From: Eledone cirrhosa
Lineage: Eukaryota
DNA: 64,000 nt
Assembly: GCA_964016885.1 (NCBI GenBank)
Contig: OZ024745.1
Span: 83,948,001-84,012,000, forward strand
Reading direction: 5' to 3'
The position numbers and the translations under genes are program-made. Below are positions 3,540-62,755 of this stretch, piece by piece; position 1 is the stretch's first letter; every line of letters begins with the position of its first letter. Under the pieces are notes generated by a model. The model did no database searches. It was not told the origin of the DNA and saw only the letters and a program-made list of their open reading frames with translations.

Positions 3540-4110
3540 TCAGTCGGGGGGCCGGGGGGGTCTGTAGTTTTTGTAATTTGCATAGTTCTTGTGCATGCAA
3601 TTAGGGGAGTGTTCCGAGATCTTGTTGAGGAGAGGGCCTTTGGCGAATAGAATCTCATAGCTCTCGGAGATACAGAGGTCACAGCAATTATGGCCTCCCG
3701 TGTATGATCGCGCTCTCTGGAGTAGTCTCCATTGGGTCTTGAAGGGGATGGAGTTCCTTTTTAGGTGCCAGATGTGGGCGGCGAGTGTAGTTTGGTTGGA
3801 TTTGTCTGGGCGCCGGAACGAGTGTGTGTGGGCGTACCAGCGAGTCTTAAAACTATTAGAAGTCATCCCGATGTACGAGTTTCTTTTTTCATCGGGGCCT
3901 GAGAGTACATCTCATATATACACAAGATCTTTTTTTAGACAGTTGTTGTTGAGAGGGCAGGTCGTCTTATCAGGGCAATTGCAGTTGCTATCGGTTGCTG
4001 GATGGGCTTCGGAAAAAGTAGACTTATTTAGCTTCTTGGTGTTGTTGTTGGCTAAGTTTCTGGCTAGATTAGGTGTGGTAGAGTAAGAGAGTCTAATGGT
4101 ATTCTTAAAT
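3540..4110 (-). pseudogene. Frameshifted linker and GIY-YIG domain of a Naiad-like PLE
   Basis: IRLSYSTTPNL..CNCPDKTTCPLNNNCL..VY / FKTRWYAHTHSF..TTLAAHIWHLK..CDLCISE..LLN..CMH. Homologous to 42130-42790. Confidence 0.88.
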
Positions 4111-8933: not shown

Positions 8934-9327
8934 TAAGTGCAAGTATGTTTATGTTTATATATATGTGTATGTGTGTGTGTCTGTATGTATGTGTGCGTGA
9001 GTGTGTATGTGTGTGTATGTGTGTGTGTGCGTGTGTGTGTGTCTGTGTGTGTGCTGTATATTTATGTAAATTAAATATATTGCGGCGACATCATACATTT
9101 ATTAATCTTGCCACGTTGCGAAAAATTTACGGCTACTTAAATATTTCCAATATAGCTTAGAACCAATTACTTTATTTTTATTCTCCCAAATATGGTTATT
9201 CAATCTTGTCTCGTTGATATTAAAATACGTCTCTCGATTAAGAACATGTTAGTCATTCTAAAATTATAAGTAGATACCCTATCATACGAAACCTTATTTG
9301 CTGCAAATACTTAGCATACAAATATAA

Positions 9328-13862: not shown

Positions 13863-14053
13863 GGTTTGAAGGTTCACCACTGGATAGAGCTGGTCAATTC
13901 AGTATGGTCAATCTTAATGTAATAATATGGAGAGTAATCAACGTAAAGCAGTTCAACTATCTTCGTTTTTGTAGTTGGTCGTGCTAGTACGGAGTTAAAT
14001 ATTATAATAAAATGACAGGGGCTGTACTTGTGTAAATCCTTGAAAGGTTTATT

Positions 14054-14111
14054 ATACTATGATCATTTCAATGACCGGGTTCCGTATGAATCCGGTGATA
14101 TCATCAGGTAT
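14054..14111 (-). ncRNA. Type I hammerhead with palindromic helix III
   Basis: ATAC-CTGATGA-TATCACCGG..CCGGTCATT-GAAA-TGATCA-TA-GTAT. Confidence 0.78.
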
Positions 14112-14488
14112 TCGAAATATAATAAATGAATGATATAATCCATGAGGCTGAAAATCAAAGACCGGAGGACGACCGACATCTAGCATCTTCCACTTTTGCC
14201 GGTCGCCCTCAAGTAAGGGGGCTAAAGCTTATAGTCTGCTACTACCAGTCAAATAGAAGGTCAATTAATTATGGTCAACCTTAATGTAATAATATGGAGA
14301 GTACTCAACGTAAAGCAGTTCAACCGTCTTCGTTTTTGTAGTTGACCGGTAGTAGCACACTATAAGCTTTAGCCCCCTCACTTGAGGGCGACCGACAAGA
14401 GTGGAAGATGTTAGATGTCGGTCGGCCCCCGGTCTTTGATTTTCAGCCCCATGGATTTTATCTATTACATTCATTTATTATATTTCGA

Positions 14489-14546
14489 ATACCTGATGAT
14501 ATCACCGGATTCATACGGAACCCGGTCATTGAAATGGTCATAGTAT
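14489..14546 (+). ncRNA. Type I hammerhead (inverted partner of 14054-14111)
   Basis: ATAC-CTGATGA-TATCACCGG..CCGGTCATT-GAAA-TGGTCA-TA-GTAT. Confidence 0.78.
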
Positions 14547-14591
14547 AATATACCTTTCAAGGATTTACACAAGTCCAGCCTCCTGTCATTT

Positions 14592-14646
<55 letters not shown>

Positions 14647-15349: not shown

Positions 15350-15827
15350 TATAAGTATGATTACGTACATACATATATGTATACAGACGTATAGTAGTAT
15401 GTATATATATATATACATACATGCACACATATATATATATATGTACGTATGGATTCACCGAACATTTATTATAATGTTCGGTGTGTTTGTAAACAAACAT
15501 CCCGAATTAAGCCGTACAGTGTCTTGCAAACATCGTTGCTCATTTGTTCAACAGGAACGCTGTACTAGTTTCAAGCTTATTAGTTATCGTCAGCAACGTA
15601 TACCTTCCTGCCAGGTGATTGAACGTCTGAAAGTATATACTTTTCTTATACTTATTAACGGCTGAGCAGCCCAATTTGCATATCGAGTGAGTTAATCGGC
15701 CGGGGTACCGAAAACGATACATACTACTGTACGTCTATATACATATATGTATGTACGTATACATACTTATATTTAAGTAATAGCCGTACTAAGAGTGAGA
15801 AATGAAATTTCGTTTCATTTTTCCGTT

Positions 15828-15858: not shown

Positions 15859-16660
15859 ATTAGAACCCTGTAACCATTAAGCTCTAAGTATAAAGTACAA
15901 ATAAATACTGAGCCGATTAACAATATATAGTAAGAAACACAGTAAACCGTGTGTCTAAAATTACAAGGGTTGAAAAACCACATATGCTTGAAATATTTAA
16001 CCACGAAACAGACAGAATGACAGAATGAAAATAAAAATATATTATCATAATAATACAAACCGCCTCAATAACCATTATATCTCTCGGACAGATTATCCCT
16101 AATCTGTTTAGCCCTGAGTGTGTTTGTAACAGATAATCCTGGGCTTCATCAGCGAGAGATTGCGATTAAATGCCACAAATACTATTTGCCAACGTTCACA
16201 CAGAAAGATGAATTCATCACCTCGTGCTTCGCCAGTCAAACGTGGTAAGCGCGTATTGAACAGAAATAACAGTCCAACACGCACAACTTAATAGCTCAAC
16301 TTGTAAGGGAGCAGAAATATATATATGAGAATTAGAATGGCGAAGCACGAGGTGATGAATTCATCTTTCTGTGTGAACGTTGACAAATAGTGTTTGTGGC
16401 ATTTAATCGCAATCTCTCGCTGATGAAGCCCAGGATTATCTGTTACAGACACACTCAGGGCGAAACAGATTAGGGATAATCTGTCCGAGAGATATAATGG
16501 TTATTGAGGCGGTTTGTATTATTATGATAATATATTTTTATTTTCATTCTGTCATTCTGTCTGTTTCGCGGTTAAATATTTCAAGCATATGTGGTTTTTC
16601 AACCCTTGTAATTTTAGACACACGGTTTACTGTGTTTCTTACTATATATTGTATATATAT
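15853..16660. mobile_element. Head-to-head copies of a ~472-bp HHR repeat
   Basis: ATGAGAATTAGAA occurs at 15853 and 16325. 15920-16232 is inverted at 16338-16652. Confidence 0.82.
16412..16493 (+). ncRNA. Full canonical type I hammerhead ribozyme
   Basis: ATCTCTCG-CTGATGA-A-GCCC..GGGC-GAAA-CAGATTA-GGGA-TAATCTG-TC-CGAGAGAT. 8-bp stem I, 8-bp stem III, GUC at 16483-16485. The inverted copy at 16079-16160 has G12>U. Confidence 0.93.
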
Positions 16661-17131
16661 ATATATGAATATATGTATAGTATATTTGGCAATATACCGT
16701 ATGTTTAATTAAAAACACTTTGAAGACCTTGCGCTGTCATTTTTAAATGTATTGACTATGTCACTTACTTCTTTTTTCGGTAAAAGAAGGGAGAGAAGCT
16801 GACAGATTCTGTTTCACGCTGGTGGCGATCCTCAGATCATCGTAGTCACCGCCTTTTCCGAAAATTACAGAGGTTGGATTCTTATACAATTCCAGTAATA
16901 ATCAGGAACTGATTATGCAGAGCGATTGCCGATCCAGCAAAAATAAAAAATCAGGATTGGTGCTCTGAAATAGCGATGTATACATGTATGTTTATTATAT
17001 TTGGCAATATACGGTATACTTTAAAAATGATAGCGCAAGGTCATGAAAATGTTTTAAATTAAACATACGGTATATTACCAAATATACTCTATATACATTC
17101 ATGTATACATCGCTATTTCGGAGCACCAATC

Positions 17132-17135
<4 letters not shown>
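16660..17135 (-). mobile_element. Diverged copy of the 314-bp HHR repeat family with inverted tail; HHR at 16796-16840
   Basis: Homologous to 34800-35310. Minus strand: CTGAGGA-TCGC-CACCA-GCGT-GAAA-CAGAATCTG-TC-AGC. Confidence 0.75.
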
Positions 17136-17213
<78 letters not shown>

Positions 17214-17221
<8 letters not shown>

Positions 17222-17873
17222 GATAAGCAGAACAAGTAAAATTCAATCAATTTTTCAAAATACATTAAAAAATATAATATAAATATTTACCTCTTCTAGT
17301 GGCCCTTACTGATCAGTTTCGCTTTGTAAAACCTCATAAATCCGATGGATTTATGATGGAAAACCAAAGCTCATCAGAGAAGCATTTTCCCTTCCTAGGG
17401 CTAAACGTCCCAGGAACGACAAAATATACAACCTCCTGCCAGCTAATAAAGGTCTGAAAAGTCGTAAAAGTGACCCGTATGTAAACTGGACCGAAGTAAA
17501 AGCGGGAAAATCAAAGACTTGCTGTCTACAATTACTACTAAAAAAATAGCAGCCAAGTAGAGCAACAGATTTGTTCTCAACGGACGGAGAAAAAGGTAGA
17601 AGTTAATATGTCCAGGGATACTAGGTACCCCTAGAAATACATAGGTTGTCTATGATTCAAGGTTGTTCAATGGTGTTAATTTGATACACCAGAACTTTAA
17701 TATTAAGATAAGCAGAACAAGTAAAATTCAATCAATTTTTCAAAATACATTAAAAAATATAATATAAATATTTACCTCTTCTAGTGGCCCTTACTGATCA
17801 GTTTCGCTTTGTAAAACCTCATAAATCCGATGGATTTATGATGGAAAACCAAAGCTCATCAGAGAAGCATTTT

Positions 17874-17877
<4 letters not shown>
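17214..17877 (-). mobile_element. Retrozyme-like unit: 485-bp period, two identical HHR-bearing direct repeats (HHRs 17302-17383 and 17787-17868)
   Basis: Minus strand: TTCT-CTGATGA-GCTTTG..CATAAATCC-ATC-GGATTTATG..CAAAGC-GAAA-CTGATCAG-TA-AGGG. (TA)n on both sides. Confidence 0.87.
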
Positions 17878-17970
<93 letters not shown>

Positions 17971-17975
17971 TATAT

Positions 17976-18490
17976 AAATGGAATAGAATGAAACGAAATT
18001 TCATTTCTCACTCTTAGTACGTCACTTACTTAAATGTAAGTATGTATGTATGCGTACATACATATATGTATACAGACGTACAGTATTATGTATATATATA
18101 CATACATGCACACATATATATATGCACGGATCGATTTACCGAACATTTATTATAATGCTCGGTTTGTTTGTTTGTAAACAAACAAACAGCCCGAATTACG
18201 CCGTACAGTGTTTAGGCAACCACGTCACCTTTTTGTTCAACACTGACACAGGAACGATGTACGAGTTTCAAGCTTATTAGCTATCGTCAGCATCGTATAC
18301 CTTCCTGCCAGATGGTTGAACGTCTGAAAGTATATACTTTCCTTATGCATATTAACGGCTGAGCAGTCTAATTTGCATATCGAGTGAGTTCAGTTGGCCG
18401 GGCGCACCGAAAACGATAAATGGAATAGAATGAAACGAAATTTCATTTCTCACTCTTAGTACGGCACTTTCTTAAATGTATGTATGTATG
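17976..18490 (-). mobile_element. Diverged ~1.15-mer (441-bp period) of the array family; HHR at 18254-18296
   Basis: AAATGGAATAGAATGAAACGAAATTTC occurs at 17977 and 18418. Minus strand: ACGATG-CTGACGA-TAGCTAATAAGCTT-GAAA-CTCG-TA-CATCGT. Confidence 0.85.
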
Positions 18491-18582
18491 TCCTACTCGT
18501 TCCTATTACCCACTCTACTACCCTAAGTATTGAGTACTTTGGTGCGTTATGGTCCACCTGGTTCCTTACCACATTTCCTCCG

Positions 18583-19087
<505 letters not shown>

Positions 19088-19119
19088 ATAATAACTTGTG
19101 TGTTAGACCTCTATTCTTT

Positions 19120-26259: not shown

Positions 26260-27280
26260 AACTAAATGATTTCAAAAATTTAATTAACGGCATCAATAAC
26301 CACATCCAATTCACAATGGAATACAGCCAAGATCAAATCCCATTTCTGTACATCTTAATCTTTAAAAAATAAAAAAAGACATAAATATTGAAACTGACAT
26401 ACACTACAAACCGACAGATTCCAAACAATACCTGCTATTCACCTCCAACCATCCAAAGCACACGAAGACGAACATCCCTTTTAATCTAGCAAGAAGAATT
26501 TGCACAATTGTCTCCAATTATGAAACGCGAAATAAAAGACTTCAAGAATTAAAGGAAATTCTACTCGAAAGACAGTACCCACCATTACTAATATATAAGG
26601 GAATAGAAAAGGCTAAAGCAATAGGCATTGATGAATTACGAAAACAGAAACAAATTCAAGCTACGTACAATATTCTATCATATAACTCAACACACAACCC
26701 AAGAAATGCGGAAGCTTACAACACTATTCACAAGAACATCCCATTATTGAAACAAGACCTAAGAATGAAAAAAACACTTGAAACACACAAAATAATCAAA
26801 AGCAAAAGACAACCGAAATCACTAAAACCATTACTCACCAATGCCAAATTATCTACCACAAACCCACAACCAGCTGTCAAAAAATGCGGTCGCTCTAATT
26901 GTGAAACCTGCACTCACCTCATTGAAGGCAACATGTATACATTTCAATCAGGACAAAATTTTGCTGTAAAAAATCACTTCACATGCTCATCAAAAAATCT
27001 TCTTTATGCCATTAAAAGTAAAGGATGCAATGAAGATTATATAGGACAAACTAAACTCACACTCAGAAACAGAATGACAGTTCATCGCCAACAATTACGA
27101 GATCCAACCACTAGACAGATACCACTAAGTGCACATCTAGACATATGCGCAAAAAATAAGACACCCAAATTCCAGGTCTTCCCATTTTATCTTTGCGCTG
27201 ACAATACAACAGGACAAATACGAATAAATAAGGAAAATATCTTTATTCAAAAATATAGACCAGCATTAAATATAGTTTAA
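26260..27280 (+). pseudogene. RT thumb, Cys linker and GIY-YIG of a PLE (disrupted)
   Basis: ORF 26747..27280: KRQPKSLK..CGRSNCETC..TCSSKNLLYAI..YIGQTKLTLRNRMTVHR..PALN. Confidence 0.9.
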
Positions 27281-28898: not shown

Positions 28899-28947
<49 letters not shown>

Positions 28948-29057
28948 TTGAAAAAAATGAAAACGAAATTTCATTTCTCACTCTTTTATGGCACTTACTT
29001 AAATGTAAGTATGTATGTATACGTACATACATATATGTATACAGACGTACAGTAGCA

Positions 29058-29156
<99 letters not shown>

Positions 29157-29318
29157 GCATACAGGTACACATACATATATGCACGCATCAGTTTAGCCGG
29201 CGTTTATTATAACGCAGGCCGCTTTGTTCGTTTGTTTGTCAACAAAGCGAACAGCCTGAATTTATGCCATACGGTGTTAAGGCAACCACGTCACCTTTTT
29301 GTTCAACACTGACACAGG

Positions 29319-31479
<2,161 letters not shown>

Positions 31480-31719
31480 TACCCATCTGCCAGATAGTTG
31501 AACATTCGAAAGTATATACTTTCCTTATGAAAATTAACGGCTGAGCAGCCTAATTTGCATATTGAGTGAGTTAAATCGGTCAGGCATACCGAAAATGATA
31601 AGTTGAAAAAAATGAAAACGAAATTTCATTTCTCACTCTTAGTATGGCACTTACTTAAATGTAAGTATGTATGTATACGTACATACATATATGTATACAG
31701 ACGTACAGTAGCATGCATA

Positions 31720-31788
<69 letters not shown>

Positions 31789-31995
31789 GCATACAGGTAC
31801 ACATACATATATGCACGCATCAGTTTAGCCGGCGTTTATTATAACGCAGGCCGCTTTGTTCGTTTGTTTGTCAACAAAGCGAACAGCCTGAATTTATGCC
31901 ATAACTCACTCAATATGCAAATTAGGCTGCTCAGCCGTTAATTTTCATAAGGAAAGTATATACTTTCGAATGTTCAACTATCTGGCAGATGGGTA

Positions 31996-33102
<1,107 letters not shown>

Positions 33103-33264
33103 CCTGTGTCAGTGTTGAACAAAAAGGTGACGTGGTTGCCTTAACACCGTATGGCATAAATTCAGGCTGTTCGCTTTGTTGACAAACAAACGAACAAAGC
33201 GGCCTGCGTTATAATAAACGCCGGCTAAACTGATGCGTGCATATATGTATGTGTACCTGTATGC

Positions 33265-33333
<69 letters not shown>

Positions 33334-33392
33334 TATGCATGCTACTGTACGTCTGTATACATATATGTATGTACGTATACATACATACTTAC

Positions 33393-33468
<76 letters not shown>

Positions 33469-34799: not shown

Positions 34800-35310
34800 T
34801 ATATAGTGTATTTGGTAATACACTGTATGCTTAATTAAAAGCATTTTGAAGACGCTATTGTTTTAAAGTAGTGACTATGTCACTTACTTGTTTTTTCAAC
34901 AAACTAAGGGAGATAAGCTGGCAGATCTCTGTTTCATACTGTTGGTATTCCTCAGAGCTTAGCACTCCCATTGACTGTTGGAAATTATGAATGTTGGATT
35001 CTTATAGAATTTCAGTAATAATCAGGGACTGATTATACAGAGCTGTTGCCGATCCGGCAAAAATTGAAAATTATAATTGGTGCTCTGAAATAGCGATGTG
35101 TATATGAATGTATATCTAGTGTATTTGGTAATACACTGTATGCTTAATTAAAAGCATTTTGAAGACATTACGCTATTGTTTTAAAGTAGTGACTATGTCA
35201 CTTCTTTTTTCAACAAACAAAGGGAGATAAGCTGACAGATCTCTTTTTCATACTGTTGGTTTTCCTCTGAGCTTAGCACCCCCTTGTCTGTTGGAAATTA
35301 TGAATGTTTT
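34800..35310 (-). mobile_element. Retrozyme-like tandem, 314-bp period, 1.6 copies; mutated HHRs at 34914-34961 and 35228-35275
   Basis: Minus strand: TAAGCT-CTGAGGA-ATAC-CAACA-GTAT-GAAA-CAGA-GA-TCTG-(C/T)C-AGCTTA. Confidence 0.82.
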
Positions 35311-35329
35311 ATATATATATATATATATA

Positions 35330-35713
35330 TTGTTATGCTTTGGGAGGGATATGTTGGCAATAAAAACACACGCACCAGTTGCTTTCACTCTAATTTATTA
35401 TAAGTTAAATTTATAAATTTAATCATTTATAAATTTCCGGTTGGTTGGTTGGTTCCACAACCGGACGGTTGTTCATATATTGTCAAAGTTCTTTCGTCAC
35501 AATTCTGTGACCTCTTCAGTGACTGGGATACTTTTCTTTGTTTTTGTGAATCTCCTTTATTCTGTCCTACGCCATCTTGTTTTTGTGTGTGTTGTGTGCT
35601 TAGTTGGCGCATGTGTTACATCCGGGTGTCTGTGTGTGTTTATTTTGGCAACATGACCCTCCCCAAGCATAACAATATCAGATAAAGAGTCTTGCTAATC
35701 AAATTCAGAAACG

Positions 35714-37986: not shown

Positions 37987-39925
37987 ATACTTGGGGAGGG
38001 TCATATTTGCGTAATATTGCCAGAATTAATAACAGAACACACTCACTGTTTGGTTGGTTTTCGCTTCTAGCTGTCTTTTATATCTGCGATCTAACTTACT
38101 CGGTCCTCAATGTTGCCATTGACTGACCGACGGTCAAAAATAATACAGATACAATATAGACACAAACACATATATATAGTTTACATAATTTACATAAATC
38201 TTTCGTTGCACATCTGCAACATCGTCAGTGGTGTTATATTTTTTTCCTCCTGTTGTGTTGTATGTCTACGCCATTTTTTTTTATTCAGTCTGTCTATATA
38301 TTTATTTATTTATTTGCTTGTTTGTTTATTTTATTTTATTTTGTCTTCTTTGCGCATGCGTTTGCGTGTGTGTATAGTGTTGTGTGCTGTGTGACTAGTG
38401 TGTATAGTGTTGTGTCTGCTGGGTGACTACTGTGTGTTTATGTGCTTGTTGTTATTGTGCTTGTGTATGTATTTATTTATCTTATTTCATTTTATTTTAT
38501 TTATTTACTTATTTATACTTCTCTTAGGTCAGTGTTGTTTGTTTGGGTGTTGTTTTGTTCCACTCATTCTTTCTGTTTAGCTTTGGTCTTCTAATTTCTA
38601 TTTCACTGGCCTCTCTGATTTGCCTATCTGCTGGGTCATTTCTATGTTTAGATATTATTCTAATTTCTATGTTGTCTATGTTACCGTCATGTTGTTGTCT
38701 AGCATGTTCGTATAGTACTGACCCGTTTTTTCGTCCTTTTAGTTCCCCCAAGTGTTGGTCTATCCTTTCACCTATGCTACGAGCTGTCTCACCTATGTAT
38801 GTTGTTGTCATGTTTCTGCAAGTACCCTCTGTACATCTTATGCTATAGACTACGTTTCTAGTTTTACAGTTTATCCGGGGGTTCACCTTACATATGATAC
38901 ATTTCCTATTGGTACAGTGGGTTTTCTTAAAAGGGTAGGTTTTGCTGATCAGTGATTCTATGGTGGTTCCTGGCTTTTCTACCACCTTTATTTTTAAGTG
39001 GGTCTTTCTCAGGGCCTTTCTACACTGGTTAGCTAATTTCCCTCCAGGGGTGGCGTCCACAAACATGACACTCTGATATCTCTGGTTGTCGTACCATGAT
39101 GTGGCCTTCCCTATCTTATGTCTAGCCCTATCTAAGCTATTCCATGATTTGCTCCTGTATAGTGGGCAAATTCCTTTCATGTCCAGTTCTATGAGGGTCT
39201 TATACTTTTCCATGGCTCCTTCGTATACTCTGACTCTGTCTCTTTGGTTGTAGCCAGAGAACTGAATGCGGTTGATGAAGTGTTGGGTGTGTCTTTCCAT
39301 TTCTGTTGGGTCGCACATGCTGGACACATTCTTCATCACTCGTACCAAATCTGCGATCAGAATATTAAACTTAGCACTACTGGACATTGCTGAGTTTTTT
39401 AGTATCAGGTATTTGGAGGCCATGGGTTTAGCATAGTGTGAGTGGAGAATTTGGGCTCTCTCGTATATAGTGTTAATCCAGAGTTCTGTGTCTAATACAG
39501 GTAGTCTATTGTTAGGGTGTTTGGAAGGGAAGTCGATAGTTACAGTTATACTCTGGTGTATGGAATTAGCTATCTGCTGGATGCTTTCCATCGTGCTATG
39601 TTCTAAATCAAACTTGTTAGTGCTCTCTAGTGGGGGTGTTCTTATAACTATATTGATATCGTCTACATAACGAGAGTACATGATGAGGTCTATGGAGCTT
39701 TCATTAAGGAGATCTTTAAGTCTCCTTTCCCACCATACCATGAAAAGGTTGGCAACATCACCAGCTATGCTGACGCCGATGGCTGCTCCCTCATTTTGGG
39801 GGTAGATTTTCTCATTGAACTTAAATATGTGGCCCTTTAGGGCAATATTACGCAAATATGACCCTCCCCAAGTATAACAATATCTGTTTCGACACACGAT
39901 TTCATATAAAAAACCTCGCTAAACA
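37981..39925 (-). mobile_element. 5'-truncated PLE family A with inverted pLTR tip (39841-39882); HHR at 38192-38233
   Basis: Open RT-GIY-YIG frame and inverted terminal 41 bp. Minus strand: CA-CTGACGA-T-GTTGCA-GATG-TGCAAC-GAAA-GATT-TA-TG. Confidence 0.92.
38524..39840 (-). CDS. PLE reverse transcriptase C-terminal half plus GIY-YIG endonuclease (5'-truncated, uninterrupted frame)
   Basis: QNEGAAIG, YSRYVDD, LPVLD, HYAKPM, MFVDATPGG, VVYSIRC..YIGETARS..ER..H. The first ~19 aa of the listed ORF come from the inverted pLTR. Confidence 0.9.
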   Translation of the reverse strand, partial: LKGHIFKFNEKIYPQNEGAAIGVSIAGDVANLFMVWWERRLKDLLNESSIDLIMYSRYVDDINIVIRTPPLESTNKFDLEHSTMESIQQIANSIHQSITVTIDFPSKHPNNRLPVLDTELWINTIYERAQILHSHYAKPMASKYLILKNSAMSSSAKFNILIADLVRVMKNVSSMCDPTEMERHTQHFINRIQFSGYNQRDRVRVYEGAMEKYKTLIELDMKGICPLYRSKSWNSLDRARHKIGKATSWYDNQRYQSVMFVDATPGGKLANQCRKALRKTHLKIKVVEKPGTTIESLISKTYPFKKTHCTNRKCIICKVNPRINCKTRNVVYSIRCTEGTCRNMTTTYIGETARSIGERIDQHLGELKGRKNGSVLYEHARQQHDGNIDNIEIRIISKHRNDPADRQIREASEIEIRRPKLNRKNEWNKTTPKQTTLT

Positions 39926-40116
39926 ATATATATATATATATATATGAAAATAAAACAAAGAAGCCTTCAATACATCAAAGGTCTTTATTAGCCAACAATG
40001 TTAAGGACTCATCAGGGCAATTAAAACTACAAGAAGCACTATCGGCCAATACTGCTCCCATTGGTTGAGCTTCCTCCTATATACTGGTGTTTTGGCCTTT
40101 ATATATATCTGACAGT

Positions 40117-42790
40117 ATGCTAACAAAGAGTTACCTGCCTTTATCTCTGAAGAATATTCCCACCCCCTCTAAGAACACCTACGAAAAACTCTTAATTGCT
40201 AGTGTTAACTCCTTCGTAAAAAGGATTAGATGGCGTGCTTTCCACTATGATATTAATAGGAATAGAAAGGACCCCAGGAATAGAACTCATTTCAATAACT
40301 ATGGCTTCAAAACTTATAAGAGCCCACCACATAATGTTCTATTGGATAATTTTGAAAATGACTTACTCTCTCTTGTCAAAAATATTAAGTATAGGCCATA
40401 TAATAGACATAGAAATTATAATAAGTTTGATAAGTTCCAGTCTAGACTTAAAAATATTGTTAAGGGTTTTAGTGCGAATAAGTCTATTCTTGTCCCGGCG
40501 GATAAGACTAAGAATCTATACTCTATGGATTACAGTGCTTACCGTGACTTTATTTATAAGGAGCTGCATAGAAATTATAAAAAGACTACGCAAGATAATT
40601 TGAACCATATCAATTGTGAGGGTCTTAAAATAGTCTCGGACCTTGGCCTCGATATGTATACCCAGCCATATTACCCTAGAGAACCGAGATTAACTCTTAA
40701 GGATCATAAGGTAGACTTCATTAGTAACCCCTCTGTTAGACTCATCTGTCCTTCTAAGTCCGATATAGCCATAATCAGTAAAAAAATCCTCGACCTTATT
40801 ATACCGGATGTTAGGGATAAAGTTAATTTTAACCTATGGGGGAACACTAAGGAGGTTATAGATTGGTTCTCTGGCATTAATAAACTTGAATCTAATAAGT
40901 TTATCCAGTTCGATATTGATGCCTACTACACATCGATTTCACCAATCCTCCTCAATCAAGCCTTAATGTTGGCCATGAGAGTGTCCAGCCTTACACGATC
41001 ACAGGTAGATATTATACAAGCAGCCCGTAGAACTATCATTAATTTTGAGGACACATTTTGGACCCGTAAAAACACGCCCAATAATTTCGACGTTACAATG
41101 GGTTCGAGTGATTCGGCCCAGGTAACTGATCTTGTTGGGTTGTTCCTCCTAAATGAACTATATGTTACCTTAAAGGCGGACTATATCGTGATGATGCATT
41201 GTTTGTGATTAACTCTAGCACCAATAATGTCGAGCATAATAAGAAGCTTTATAAATTTTTTAAAAGCTATAACCTTTCGATCACGATAGATAGAAACGAT
41301 AGAGCGCTCAACTTTTTAGATGTGACTTTGGACTTGGTCACTAATAGTTTTAAACCCTTCCATAAGCCTAATGAAATACTTTCTTATGTTAGTCCCAATT
41401 CTAACCACCCCAAATCTATGATAAGCTCTATAATTAAGGGTGTATCTAATAGGATTTCCACACTCTCTAAGGACGTAGGGACATTTAATGACCATGCGGA
41501 GTACTATAATAATGCCCTAGCTAATTCCGGTTACTCTGGTAAAATACATTATAATAATAGTAACCTTAGAAAGTCTCCGCTTACTTATAATAATAATAAC
41601 ATAATATCCCATAATATGGCCATGAATGGGAGTAGGAAGCATAATAATCGTAGAAATTACATAGGTGTATCTGAACCCATCCATAAGTTAACCCACCGGA
41701 CTCGTAATAGGGAATCTAATACCTCTAGGAATCAAGTCGAACCCTCTGAGCGCTCACTCATTGGTGATGCCTTTGCTAGATCTAATTCTAATAATGTTGT
41801 TTCTACTGATCCTATTATTGGCCCTAATCCCTTTGATAGGATTCCAGACAGCAGCAGATATACTAAAGGTAGAAACAGAAAGAGACTTAATGGAATTTCG
41901 GCTGATTCTAATAATGTGGTTTTAACTAATCCTTGTAGTAACCCTAGTCTTAATAATGGGATATTGGATAATGGTAGAGTCGGAAATGATAAAAATAGAA
42001 GGAGACTAAATACTTATTTTAACCCGCCATATAATCAGGAAGTATTAACTAATATCCCTAGGTCTTTCTTTTCTATCTTAGAGAAAAATTTCCCCCCTTC
42101 TCATAAATACCATAGTATTTTTAATAAAAATGTAATTAAACTCTCATTCTCTACCACCCCTAATATTAGTTCTCATTTAGCTAGCACTAACAATAGGAAA
42201 ATTAGGGATGGATACTCCTCTCTACATACTACTAGTCAGAACAGATCTGCAAATGCCTTACCACCAGAGCAGACCTTATCTAATACTAATCCTACGCGTA
42301 ATGCATCACTACTTCAGCCAATCAATAGCATCCGGAAGTGTAACTGTAGAGTGAGTGCTAACTGCCCTTTAAACGGTAACTGCCTCTCTAGGAACATCGT
42401 TTATGCTTGCGTAGTTATAACTAATTCCTCTAATAGAACATATATAGGCTCTACATCTAACACTTTTAAGACTAGGTTTAATTCTCATATCTCTAATTTC
42501 AAACATGTTAAGTTTAAGAATTCTACTTCTTTAGCACACTATATCTGGGATCTTAAGGGGGCTAATATACCATATAGCCTTAATTGGCGTTTAGTAGCAC
42601 GCTCTAATAACCTTCTACACATACTAAATTTTGTAATCTCTGTATCCTTGAGACACACTCTATAATTTTCTCTAGTGAATCCTTACTTAATAGAAAGTCT
42701 GAGATATTCTCTTCTTGCCCCCACGCTATTTCTAATTCTTACTTTTATTATAAACCTAAAGGTTCTAGTAGTGTAAATTGTATCCATTAG
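40117..42790 (+). pseudogene. PLE RT/GIY-YIG polyprotein with two frameshifts (~41170, ~42610)
   Basis: SLKNIP..KRIRWRA, ADKT, TLKDHK..NP.VRLICPSKS, QFDI, VTMGSSD, GGLYRDDAL, NFLDVT, FNPPY, CNCR..CPL..C..IVY..YIGST..FKTR..H, CNLC..E..CPH. Confidence 0.92.
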
Positions 42791-44473
42791 CTGATATATT
42801 CCATTACTTATTTTTTAGCTTAGTTTAGGTTCATTTTGTTTACCACCATTATTATCATCATTATTATCATTGGTTTTTGACAACTTTTTATTCTAGCTCT
42901 CATAATCTTTTGGCTACTATACCATACCTTACACATTAAATTTTCACTATTAACACCTTATGAGTATATATCTGATTATATATTTTATATTATTTTGTTT
43001 CATTTTATTTTATTTTATTTGGATTCTTCTTTGGATAACTAACCCCCCCCCATGCACACATAAACTTATTGCTAACCCCTTCAAATATATTATGATTATA
43101 TTTAATCCCCTTTTTTATGCTCCTTTCTATTATATAATACAGTATATTGATTATGATTTTATGCTCCTTTGTATCCACATACATTTCTTTTTTTCTGTCC
43201 ACATTAGCCTACCATAATTCTGCTTAAATCAGTTTATTAGATAACGTTATGTAAATGATAGTAGAATATTTCATTCCTTTCTATATATATTTATAGTTAA
43301 TATCTTAATGTTTAGGAATTTTGATTACTTAAACCATAGCTAATATTGTATTGCCTTATTAAGTATTTTAAATATTTTCAATATTAATTTATCAAATAGG
43401 GTTTTCTAGTCATTTATCCGGGTTGTTTCCTAAGTTTTTACATAACTGCATGTGAGACCTAAGTAAATACTTTTGTTTTTGTTTTTTTGATTTCCGGTCG
43501 ATTTTATTTATTTATTTATTAATACTACTGTGCCTAATATTTTCTGTCTGGCCCTTATTCACTCATTCACATATGTGTCTGCTCACCAACCTTGTAATTA
43601 TAAGTAATTATATATTATATTATGTTCATTATTTATATTGAAGTTGTTATTCAACTCTTTGTAAATGTAATATTGATCTTTGTTGCTTACCGATGATTTT
43701 ATGCACCATTATGATATGTTATATTTTATATATTCCGTAAGATGTTTATATTTTTGTACCATCATAATTTTGATTTTGGTATTGTACAATATATATTTTT
43801 TTCTCACCTGCTCTCTAACTCTATATGAATTGATTTGTTAACTTGCATGCCATTATATATTATTATATTATTATTATAGTGTTATTGTGACATCTATATT
43901 GCTTGTGTAAATTAACCGGAGATTATCTATTATATTATATTATATATTATATATTATATATTATATGTTATGTAATTATATATTATATGTTTTACTTTTA
44001 CTAATTTCATTACTTCATGTTATACTGTATATTACATATACGTATTATTTTGTATTTTTATTTTTATTCCTATTATGCTTATTTATATTTAAACTCTTAA
44101 TAAGGTTTAATTTGTGCTGTTAATGATGGAAATGTGTATTGATGTATATGTATATGTGCGTATGTGTGTGTATATATATACATATGTATATTGTGCCTTT
44201 TAATTTTAATTATTATATTATATTATATTGTATTACATTGTATTACATTGTATTACATATAGTACTATAATTCCCGCTCTATATAACCACTTTTGTTTAG
44301 CTCTAGTTTTTTTGCTTTGGACTATATTTGTAATATGGTTCAAAATGTTATCCACCTCCTTAGTGATTTTTATTATATATTTTTACCCATAATCTTCCAA
44401 TACTTTAGTGTATGTACACTCCATATTCTTCGGAGTTTTCGGCTTGTATTGGCCGATAGTGCTTCTTGTAGTT

Positions 44474-44523
44474 TTAATTGCCCTGATGAGTCCTTAACAG
44501 GACGAAACATTGTTGGCTAATAA
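44474..44523 (+). ncRNA. Minimal type I hammerhead in the 3' pLTR
   Basis: GCC-CTGATGA-GTCC-TTAACA-GGAC-GAAA-CATTG-TT-GGC. Confidence 0.87.
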
Positions 44524-44664
44524 AGACTTTTGATGTATTGAAGGCTTCTTTGTTTTATTTTCATAATTCTTCGGCTCTGTTTAATTACATTGAGCTATAC
44601 CTATTACTGTCATTTCTATAATACGAAGAGGGTGTTTAACTCCAACACGCTCCAGTATTTTAAT

Positions 44665-44750
<86 letters not shown>

Positions 44751-54602: not shown

Positions 54603-55696
54603 TAGTAGAATAATCGAGTATCGAAAAATCGGCGCACGAGTTCACGATAAACAAAATTCGAGATGAGCGGCAGAGGGCTCTATAATTCAAATAAATTAGA
54701 GCTATAACTATCGTTAAAATACCGTCACACGTAGAATATGTCTACAATCAACCAAATAACCGAAAAGTTCGATATGGAAGATTCGGGACACTCAGATAAA
54801 TTATCAATAAATCAATAAATGAAATGAATGTAAAATGCATACCCGGACCCACTAGAGAGATGGAATATCTAGCTTCTTGGGTTTCTGTAAATCCTTAAAC
54901 CGTCATCTATCAGCTCATATAAAAATATAAGACTTACAGATAATCGGGGGACTGGAGTTACTTCATCAACGAGCTTCGTCCGAATGGATAAAAAGACAAG
55001 ACCCAGGCTAAAAATACGCACATGGATTTCAGCAAGGGAGATAACCTTTATATCCGCAAAAATATTCGGAAAAATGTGGCAAAAACACATATCGAATAAG
55101 AGTGCTCAATAGACATGTTAAAATAAACAGAGGCTATTCATCATTTAATAGAATCGACAAAAAATGAACAATAAAATTAACTGGTCAATAGCTAAGTCTA
55201 GAGCTAAATATAGTAGAATAATCGAGTATCGAAAAATCGGCGCACGAGTTCACGATAAACAAAATTCGAGATGAGCGGCAGAGGGCTCTATAATTCAAAT
55301 AAATTAGAGCTATAACTATCGTTAAAATACCGTCACACGTAGAATATGTCTACAATCAACCAAATAACCGAAAAGTTCGATATGGAAGATTCGGGACACT
55401 CAGATAAATTATCAATAAATCAATAAATGAAATGAATGTAAAATGCATACCCGGACCCACTAGAGAGATGGAATATCTAGCTTCTTGGGTTTCTGTAAAT
55501 CCTTAAACCGTCATCTATCAGCTCATATAAAAATATACAGATAATCGGGGGACTGGAGTTACTTCATCAACGAGCTTCGTCCGAATGAATAAAAAGACAA
55601 GACCCAGGCTAAAAATACGCACATGGATTTCAGCAAGGGAGATAACCTTTATATCCGCAAAAATATTCGGAAAAATGTGGCAAAAACACATATCGA

Positions 55697-55698
<2 letters not shown>
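54603..55698 (-). mobile_element. Retrozyme-like tandem, 608-bp period, 1.8 copies; variant HHRs at 54842-54973 and 55450-55574
   Basis: Near-identical direct repeats between (TA)n. Minus strand: CTCG-TTGATGA-AGTAACTCC..GGATTTACA-GAAA-CCCA..CTAGA..TCTAG-TGGG-TC-CGGG. Confidence 0.8.
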
Positions 55699-55736
<38 letters not shown>

Positions 55737-60627: not shown

Positions 60628-62755
60628 TGTTTTACTTTTAAAGACCAAACCAAGGTATTTTGTTAATTTAATTTTAGTTAGAAACAGTTTGTCCAGGGAA
60701 AAGGGGAGTGGCAAGCAAGAAATAGATTTGCATCCCTAAACAACAAAACTGGATGTGAACACGTGATTGATATCCTTTGTTGTGATACAGAGCCCTATCT
60801 TCACGATAGATTTACGTATACAAGAGGAAAAATCAACATGTAGATGTATTTGAATGTGGGCCTAGTTTTTTTTTATATTCACAAAAGGTTTATTTCTATG
60901 CAGATAAAATTCCGTTTTAAAGCTAATATAACAAGTGCTCATATTTTATGTCAAACTTAAATATGTATGTTCAACAACATACACTCACACACAAACTCAC
61001 ACACGTATACTCACATACTCACACACACACACACATATTTACACGCTAACGTATACACACATACAAATATACAAAAAGCATATAGACAAACGTACATATA
61101 TACATAAGTGTATGTCTAAATGAGATCTCTCACGAAAGTCATTCGGACATACACGTAATATTCGCATACATAGACACACACACGCGCTTATACAGACATA
61201 CCCATTCATAAATATATAGACACTTACGTGCACATACATGCACACAGAAAAACAGAAAAGCATTCTCATACACACATTCAAACAGTACAAAAAATCACAA
61301 ACATACACGTAGAGACACATATACAAACACTCATACATAAACATAAATCCAATCATACACATTACACGCACGCCTACACTAAACAGACTACACAAAAACA
61401 CACCTAAACATACACACACACGTACGAATGGAAGGAAATATGGGTGGCGTGTTGGTGTAATGGTGACACATTGGTCCGGCAAACCATAGATGTCGGTTCG
61501 TGACCCATGAACGTCAATACTCGTCCCTTTTTCCATTCAGAAGGTGTTTTTTTAAGTCCCAACTAACAGACTAAATCTATTTGGTCAAATACGGCGTAAG
61601 CGCATGTTGCTGCCTTATTTTCAGATTCACTGGCCGTTTCTAAACAAAGCCTGCTTTATGTCTCCTTGTTTGTGTACACACATATATATATATATATATA
61701 AACTATATGTCGACATAGAAAGAACTTATAATGTATTCAACAAAATATAGGATGCAAGTGCAAGATATTGAAAGTCAGACAGGAATTGAAAATCTGTTGA
61801 CTATGTATTGCCAAAAATATAACTAATTCTTATAATTCTTAATAAACGCTTTGACTGTTTAATTGTTACATCAAATCTTTAATAAGTCAGGACACTGCGC
61901 GAGTTTTTTGTTAAATTGTATAACGATACATCACTACATGGCTGAATGAATTGAGCAACTGGGATTGAAGATTGTCGTGATTCTTTTGTTGTTTAGTTTT
62001 AGGTCCCACCTGATTGAACAAATCTAAGATAAAAATCCGCAAACATCCTCTTTATTGATATGTAGGACTATGTTATCAAATGTTTTCCCAGCATAGATCC
62101 TCCATCTTTGGAAAGTGAAACATTGATTATTGCTGTTCTTTAGTTTCGATCGAACAAACATAAGATTCTTGTCTTGACACTACTGTCTATTTTAGTCAGA
62201 TTGTGTCCAGTACTATATTATCCAAAGTGACTTCCTTGTTTTATAACGTGATTGGTGAGAGGTTTTGCTACAAGCCAAACAACATAGAGTTGGCCTCGTT
62301 TGCTCATGTAAGATAGGAGAAGTATAAAGGTGGGTAACTCTTGTAGGAGGTCCAATTTAGAAATAATCAAAATCTTTAATGGCGTTAATGATTGAAGCAT
62401 TGTTTTCAGCCAACTTCTCAAGAAGGGAGCATTATTGATATACTATGTACGAGAGTAATTCTTTGATAAATGTAATTGTACAGAAGACGTGTACGTGGTC
62501 ACTGAAAATATGAGAGGTTCACAATAATAAATGAGGTCAGTGTCCACCATAGTTTCTAATGGTTCTGGCAAGTTATAAACAAGAGCAATATATTGGTAGT
62601 TAGCAGTGTCGAAGTGATTGTTCTTCCTAAAAATAGACCATGGGCATCAAGTGTTTCGGTAGGTTGAGAAAGATTCCCATACGTGGGAGTATGATTTAGA
62701 TTTGCGATGAAGATATCTGTTAGCTCAGTAGAGAAGCATTTGGGAATGAGAGACC

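Follow-up and report, generated by a model that had tools for sequence, protein, structure and literature searches.

A short insertion lies within a (TA)n microsatellite in the window, by which is meant the whole 64,000-nt stretch of Eledone cirrhosa DNA that was analysed. On the minus strand it reads as two copies of a pLTR-like repeat separated by a spacer, and each repeat carries a type I hammerhead ribozyme motif. Its parts are as follows.

17136..17218, no strand: (TA)n target microsatellite bordering the element's 3' end (RNA sense), with 41 TA units at 17136-17217
17215..17392, minus: downstream 178-bp repeat, pLTR-like, made up of 15 nt, hammerhead B and the tail; exact repeat
17215..17306, minus: tail reaching 88-92 nt past the predicted cut, a long AU-rich hairpin with a TA-like end
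17300..17385, minus: type I hammerhead B, core at 17377, helix III at 17308-17317, predicted cut 17307/17306, helix I weak
17307..17791, minus: predicted monomer of 485 nt from cut to cut, GC 36%, circular fold of -140.7 kcal/mol (z -7.7)
17393..17699, minus: 307-bp spacer, coding not detected, structured on the ribozyme strand only
17700..17877, minus: upstream 178-bp repeat, its 5' truncation lying 15 nt ahead of the hammerhead core; exact repeat
17785..17870, minus: type I hammerhead A, core at 17862, palindrome at 17793-17802, predicted cut 17792/17791
17877..17976, no strand: (TA)n microsatellite bordering the element's 5' end, 37 + 12 TA units

The two repeats (17215-17392 and 17700-17877) are identical at 178/178 bp with an offset of 485. 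The unambiguous repeat length is 174 bp, because the first 4 nt of the repeat coincide with the TA flank, and the whole insert of 663 nt amounts to 1.37 units. An earlier note on this DNA had described two identical repeats of ~180 bp and had taken their identity as a sign of recent insertion, and both points are borne out. There are 0 differences between the repeats, with a 95% upper bound on divergence of 1.7%, as against identities of 90.6-97.8% for the internal repeats of other elements in the window, which suggests that the insertion is young.

The insert ends on its 3' side in a TA-like stretch common to the element and its target, 88-92 nt beyond the predicted cut, and the overlap of this tail end with the target may mark the point at which reverse transcription started. 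The 5' end lies 15 nt ahead of the upstream hammerhead core. Neither end coincides with a predicted cleavage site, in which respect the insert resembles PLE insertions. (TA)n flanks the element on both sides and masks any target-site duplication, and the surroundings are a nest of other repeats inserted in microsatellites. The internal junction holds 4 nt of TA-like sequence, which could be part of the unit or could be a remnant of the target between two truncated insertions.

No second copy of the element was found in the 64-kb window. Searches with the element gave chance matches only, among plasmids (48 records, E 0.2) as among phages (2 records), and a hammerhead pattern scan of prokaryotic genome contigs returned 0 matches. 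The element contains no A box, B box or octamer of a Pol III or snRNA-type promoter, and its sense strand has 17 runs of at least four T.

Two identical hammerhead-bearing repeats around a non-coding interior, together with a cut-to-cut monomer, are also features of the plant LTR retrozymes, and TRIM dimensions are compatible with repeats of 178 bp and an interior of 307 bp. It could therefore be asked whether the element is a miniature LTR retrotransposon (TRIM) or a plant-type LTR retrozyme, and a tract of 12 purines followed by TG does stand ahead of hammerhead B. However, this tract lies partly within both repeats, neither strand has TG...CA termini, and the unit, with a GC content of 0.36 and a size of 485 nt, lacks the LTR/PBS/PPT layout. 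LTR retrozymes are described, in the accessible part of a preprint, as having a type III hammerhead, a PBS, a PPT and 4-bp TSDs (10.64898/2026.07.22.740005); here the hammerheads are of type I, neither an evident PBS (by eye, the first TGG is 8 nt from the repeat end) nor a 4-bp TSD is seen, and the target is a (TA)n microsatellite. This explanation is already largely refuted, and the chance that it is correct is minimal.

Both hammerheads are of type I, lie on the minus strand and have intact CUGAUGA cores at 17862 and 17377. In each, G10.1-C11.1 closes a 6-bp helix II which is extended by a long hairpin, with 50 nt between the core halves; after helix II come GAAA, the palindromic helix III and a GUA cleavage triplet. 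The palindrome is 10 nt long (ACTGATCAGT at 17308-17317 and 17793-17802) and is read on the minus strand of each hammerhead as ACUGAUCAGU. Within a monomer it can form 3 bp with a GAUC loop, and between two copies it forms a 10-bp duplex. Helix I consists of U-A, C-G, U·G and U·G pairs, followed by a C×C mismatch and then by G-C and U-A.

A descriptor fitted to these motifs (helix II of at least 6, helix I of at least 4, helix III of at least 3) finds hammerheads A and B as the only two sites in the window and matches 0/300 dinucleotide-shuffled windows. Looser descriptors match 1/300 and 4/300 shuffles, the loosest (4/300) having 7 real sites. Hammerheads A and B are absent from the Rfam matches, both at the gathering threshold and among 66 matches up to E=10; this negative is uninformative, because Rfam also misses the other hammerheads in the window, bar one weak match at 16402-16511. 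The claim that each repeat holds a G10.1-C11.1 hammerhead with a palindromic helix III is thus upheld. With cores 485 nt apart and predicted cuts after 17792 and 17307, the layout is predicted to suit cleavage by the two hammerheads and release of a 485-nt RNA running from 17791 to 17307, as had been proposed.

The same note had called the monomer 'clean', a word which suits the hammerhead core but not the activity to be expected from folding. Helix I is weak (4 bp, two of them G·U), and active folds are predicted to lie 7-14 kcal/mol above the ensemble. In a model of secondary structure alone, to which tertiary contacts, Mg2+ and protein are external, the energy needed to force the active fold is +9.9 and +13.5 kcal/mol in the monomers, +7.3 to +7.5 kcal/mol for a single core with inter-repeat helix III, +13.7 kcal/mol for the full dimer and +13.0 kcal/mol for the circle. 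Pair probabilities are about 0.25 for the inter-repeat palindrome duplex, 0.7-0.99 for helix II and at most 0.001 for helix I, both strands of which find competing partners just upstream, in the 3' end of the spacer. Weak activity is predicted on this basis. By a local metric, the cost for this hammerhead (+9.6 kcal/mol) falls among those of four other hammerheads in the window (+2.5 to +10.7 kcal/mol), so that it is an ordinary PLE-type motif. Inspection of the unit by eye showed no hammerhead of rearranged (non-circularly permuted) order whose helix I would be stronger.

PLE hammerheads in general have a short helix I, a large helix II and a palindromic helix III, and are reported to cut weakly in vitro even as dimers (PMC4209133, accessible text). 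The hammerhead of the anole PLE required the presence of protein to cut, and insertion did not depend on its cleavage; the available portion of the same paper reports no RNA-seq reads terminating at the cut site (PMC11167929). Among predicted Xenopus retrozyme dimers, 1/9 was cleaved in vitro, according to the accessible part of the preprint (10.64898/2026.07.22.740005).

Protein coding was not detected in the element, including the spacer of 307 bp, for which 300 bp of non-coding sequence had been claimed; poorly conserved ORF ends or spliced frames could escape these searches. The longest stop-free frames inside the unit are of 83, 69 and 68 aa, and in the circularised monomer the longest ATG-led ORF is 15 aa in the sense and 34 aa in the antisense direction. 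A PLE profile made from 115 homologues of a PLE protein from the window finds five PLE coding stretches there (~0.1-0.6, 3.7-4.0, 26.8-27.3, 38.5-39.8 and 42.3-42.6 kb; E 8e-189 to 1e-6); against the element, the best HMM E was 0.59 and the best tblastn E among the 115 queries was 0.036. Candidates of near length (2) and of greater length (359) included no homologue of the 83-aa frame. Pfam gave a best E of 0.023 across 8/8 frames, its weak matches (E 0.02-0.35) being taken as chance, and exact protein look-up found 0/3 frames; the 68-aa frame was judged by Pfam and exact look-up only. The 69-aa frame, on the plus strand, has one match among 1.8 billion proteins, an RCC1-repeat protein at E 3.6e-5, which was rejected as a homologue: the score sums weak matches of 14-29 aa, and the frame is on the non-ribozyme strand. 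GIY-YIG C-termini seen by eye in frames of the element are likewise unsupported (tblastn E 0.036, HMM E at least 0.59).

The spacer folds with a z of -4.76 on the ribozyme strand as against -0.68 on the opposite strand, and 1/32 background stretches folds as well as it does. This points to selection at the RNA level and is compatible with a retrozyme and with a 3' UTR alike. For three other PLE-type hammerheads, the 307 nt that lie upstream give z values of -4.25, -3.73 and +0.74, and folding was rejected as proof of a retrozyme because PLE-type 3' UTRs show similar folding.

PLEs and PLE-like insertions lie elsewhere in the window.

39946-44670, plus: near full-length PLE with RT and GIY-YIG, a frame break near 41.2 kb, an inverted 5' pLTR, a ~1.7-kb 3' UTR and a hammerhead at 44483
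38524-39918, minus: truncated PLE
59-967, plus: truncated PLE
35330-35690, minus: truncated PLE
3708-4106, minus: truncated PLE
26366-27280, plus: truncated PLE
15920-16652: near-perfect palindrome, arms 97.8% complementary, no ORF, hammerhead at 16420 (plus)

The elements at 59-967 and 35330-35690 belong to a common pLTR family, with hammerheads at 775 and 35519, 83% identity and inverted tails. The hammerhead at 16420 has a helix I of 8 bp together with a long helix III; of the active folds in the window, its own is the most stable (+2.5 kcal/mol). Its inverted copy has a damaged core. Local PLE 3' UTRs range from about 215 nt to 1.7 kb. The distance from the predicted cut to the start of (TA)n was measured for seven hammerhead elements of the window, and in all of them (7/7) it is 88-166 nt; given this local range, tail length was rejected as a diagnostic. 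The PLE protein at 38.5-39.9 kb has its best named homologue in Octopus vulgaris, with 64% identity over 78% of the query, and the start of the 40.1-42.7 kb ORF, in the near full-length PLE, was likened by eye to Hydra-1_Obim of the Hydra clade. No host exon was found in the 140 ORFs scanned of 181 qualifying in the window, the only matches being three to GIY-YIG; a ZIP match among the window ORFs was set aside as a (CA)n artefact.

The case that the earlier note had named against itself was that the unit is only the tandem pLTR of a coding PLE. Since the element is flanked by (TA)n left and right, and more than 8 kb separates it from the nearest PLE coding sequence, it is not, at this locus, the pLTR of an attached coding element. 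It might instead be the 3' end of a coding PLE with a native tandem pLTR of two hammerheads, truncated at its 5' end. Axolotl PLEs are reported to carry minimal hammerheads in tandem (PMC7229834, accessible text), and the short helix I, large helix II and palindromic helix III seen here are those of PLE-type hammerheads (PMC4209133, likewise in part). Against this, no ORF adjoins the repeats, 100% identity is not required of a long-standing internal tandem, and where a 3' hammerhead was detected in other coding PLEs of the window (775, 44483), it is a single one. A native tandem pLTR is improbable as an explanation. The opposition between retrozyme and PLE pLTR that the note drew is too sharp as an either/or, because animal retrozymes have been proposed to be non-autonomous pLTR derivatives of PLEs (10.64898/2026.07.22.740005, accessible part).

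On the actual rival reading, a longer coding PLE left two 5'-truncated 3' ends (485 and 178 nt), which were joined head to tail through re-initiation, template switching or insertion of the PLE into its own end. The spacer would then be an ordinary 3' UTR, and the 485-nt spacing a one-off without a family-wide monomer. 5'-truncated pLTR-only insertions are common in the window (35330-35690, 15920-16652), the local 3' UTRs are long and structured, the junction has its 4-nt TA-like stretch, and partial tandems are a normal PLE arrangement according to the accessible text of PMC8557442. However, the units are not separated by a (TA)n tract, the 307-nt spacer has no coding match, and a TA-like internal junction of the same kind is found in a second family, where it is conserved as a trait of the unit. 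Though the main rival, this reading is rather unlikely.

The second family is represented by two copies.

34806-35308, minus: second retrozyme-like family, older, 314-nt non-coding unit, type I hammerheads
16697-17133, minus: the same family and unit, directly adjoining the 485-nt element

Cores of this family lie near 35271, 34955 and 16835. The copy at 34806-35308 has a repeat-spacer-repeat layout with two degenerate hammerheads one 314-nt unit apart, and its repeats are 90.8% identical. The two copies are independent insertions with PLE-type ends and are 78% identical; helix II differs between them by compensatory changes. Both read through one and the same tail-to-spacer junction, which the 16.7-kb copy also has in its inverted 5' part. 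Conservation of the junction in two independent copies implies that the 314-nt unit closes on itself as a true loop, which leaves no space for an ORF. The second family has no sequence similarity to the 485-nt element and would support the loop reading of the latter by analogy. For the 485-nt element itself, the tail-to-spacer junction is seen once, in the single copy in the window, and as there is one copy only, the junction is not demonstrable there as a family trait.

This recurrence also bears on whether a local DNA duplication, gene conversion or an assembly artefact created or homogenised the second repeat. The region is rich in microsatellites and palindromes, and 100% identity is compatible with collapse or conversion. 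Yet the period is long, the breakpoints fall at a PLE-type 3' end in (TA)n, and the layout recurs in a diverged family whose repeats are 90.8% identical, which leaves such an origin very improbable.

The preferred reading, with a probability of roughly 0.6, is that the element is a young, non-autonomous, PLE-mobilised animal (non-LTR) retrozyme whose 485-nt template was a closed loop or a tandem. The unit would be a 485-nt non-coding loop comprising a hammerhead, an AU-rich tail and a structured spacer. A multi-unit transcript would be produced, and its weak hammerheads would cut now and then; cleavage would go best in dimers paired by the 10-bp palindromic helix III, and a PLE protein might assist. 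A host RtcB-type ligase would close the monomer, and alternative pairings would hold the ribozyme off. The GIY-YIG endonuclease of a PLE would then nick (TA)n, and its reverse transcriptase would prime ~90 nt past the cut at the TA-like stretch, copy 1.37 units and stop. The product that stands in the sequence is repeat-spacer-repeat, with identical repeats and with ends off the cut sites, within (TA)n. As neither end is a cleavage site, the template would not have been a cut linear monomer; as it covered two cleavage positions, it would have been a circle or an uncut multimer, and the sequence is compatible with both.

Several of these steps have published counterparts. RtcB-type ligation has been shown for axolotl and mussel retrozymes (PMC7229834, accessible text). 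Purified PLE protein nicks AT-rich DNA, and its reverse transcription starts 111-118 nt into the ORF, with hammerhead cleavage at +26 (PMC11167929, available portion); computed from these values, the anole Poseidon start lies 85-92 nt past the cut. The cut-to-(TA)n spacing of 88-166 nt in the window matches such internal initiation by a PLE reverse transcriptase. Octopus PLEs of the Hydra and Naiad clades favour (TA)n, and Hydra elements have canonical short-helix hammerheads (PMC8557442, accessible text); in the accessible supplement, Hydra-clade PLEs, including an Octopus family, combine a (TA)n target with similar short-helix hammerheads. Recently active Penelope-like families are reported in O. 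vulgaris, ribozymes being unmentioned in the available main text (PMC13282606).

The existence of a 485-nt circle of this family in vivo is, as a matter of judgement, conceivable but on balance doubtful, and more doubtful still for this locus. A bolder version, in which a still-active cephalopod retrozyme family makes a 485-nt circle that is kept off by alternative pairing of both strands of helix I and is copied directly by the co-resident PLE reverse transcriptase, is unlikely. If it were true, the insertion geometry of two families within 64 kb would be a record of rolling-circle target-primed reverse transcription, and the two partners would form a substrate-enzyme pair for in vitro work.

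In the features that give a clear result, namely tandem type I hammerheads, absence of detected coding, size, GC and layout, the element agrees with the animal non-LTR retrozymes. As described in accessible parts of PMC7229834 and 10.64898/2026.07.22.740005, these share with it a non-coding tandem unit with one type I hammerhead per unit, a GC content below 50%, the absence of LTR/PBS features, a stable predicted circle and co-occurrence with PLEs. The axolotl retrozyme likewise has a palindromic helix III for dimer cleavage, and two intact hammerheads are what the preprint uses to call a retrozyme 'active'. The unit of 485 nt falls inside the range of 51-972 bp reported there for retrozyme families, but is longer than the ~170-400 nt invertebrate circles shown experimentally (PMC7229834). 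Unlike the animal retrozymes so described, the element has 1.37 units rather than a multi-unit array, its (TA)n target conceals TSDs, and its hammerhead is PLE-type: instead of the canonical loop 1-loop 2 form, it has a helix II arm of 50 nt and a helix I that is weak.

The pLTRs of EN+ PLEs (Hydra, Neptune and Poseidon clades), as given in accessible parts of PMC4209133, PMC8557442 and PMC11167929, resemble the element in having a hammerhead near the 3' end with a short helix I, a large helix II and a palindromic helix III, a 3' end ~90 nt past the cut, 5' truncation, partial tandem arrangement and a (TA)n target. They differ in that EN+ PLEs carry an RT/GIY-YIG ORF, none of which lies between or beside the repeats here, so that the element does not qualify as an autonomous PLE, and in that their units are of 2-4 kb rather than 485 nt. 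Unlike metazoan minimal PLE hammerheads, as described in the available text, those of the element lack the typical extra nucleotide between A9 and G10.1; some Hydra-clade hammerheads in the accessible supplement of PMC8557442 lack it as well.

Animal retrozymes and their dependence on PLEs have been described, mainly for vertebrates and with the mechanism still to be elucidated, in the accessible part of the preprint (10.64898/2026.07.22.740005). No cephalopod retrozyme was found in the literature searched, most subscription papers being outside its reach. The present locus is expected in kind and useful as a case: it adds a young invertebrate example, from a cephalopod, whose ends bear PLE insertion signatures, and a nearby second family with a conserved loop junction. 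If the circle is confirmed, it would provide a substrate for asking which template PLE proteins copy, circles or uncut multimers, and what part, if any, the hammerhead plays.

Some observations on hammerheads and PLEs lie to the side of these questions. In two Naiad consensus 3' ends from the accessible supplement of PMC8557442, apparent hammerheads were seen by eye with the order of their segments rearranged, such that the helix III/cut/helix I strand lies inside loop II. Naiads are said in that paper, as far as its accessible text goes, to be without canonical hammerheads, and non-circular permutation of hammerheads is a concept already described (PMC10085705, available part). The helix III motif of the present element has 0 occurrences in the same supplement (Naiad, Chlamys and Hydra consensuses), where line breaks could hide a match. 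Splice-donor-like motifs occur soon after the predicted cut, at 17777 and 17292 (minus), and likewise near 34890 (minus) in the second family, possibly by chance; in some PLEs, 5'-UTR introns begin within the pLTR (PMC8557442, accessible text).

Other repeats surround the element. A tandem and inverted array of a ~520-bp repeat at 28940-33400, with internal (TA)n and an octamer-like motif, has further copies at 15445-15822 and 17977-18491; no hammerhead was found in the array, and the repeat is possibly a Helitron-like or satellite unit. At 54605-55699 there is a tandem duplication of ~495 bp with 98% identity and a period of ~608, in which a hammerhead was not detected. Long palindromes in or near (TA)n at 18690-19090 and 13996-14606, which gave spurious miRNA matches, are probably foldback or 5'-inverted insertions. 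A weak tRNA match (31.8 bits) lies at 61446-61516 (plus), and a SINE-like dispersed repeat of ~190 bp is present in at least nine copies, at 9325, 20815, 28140, 45890, 49694, 50637, 59190, 60270 and 60480.
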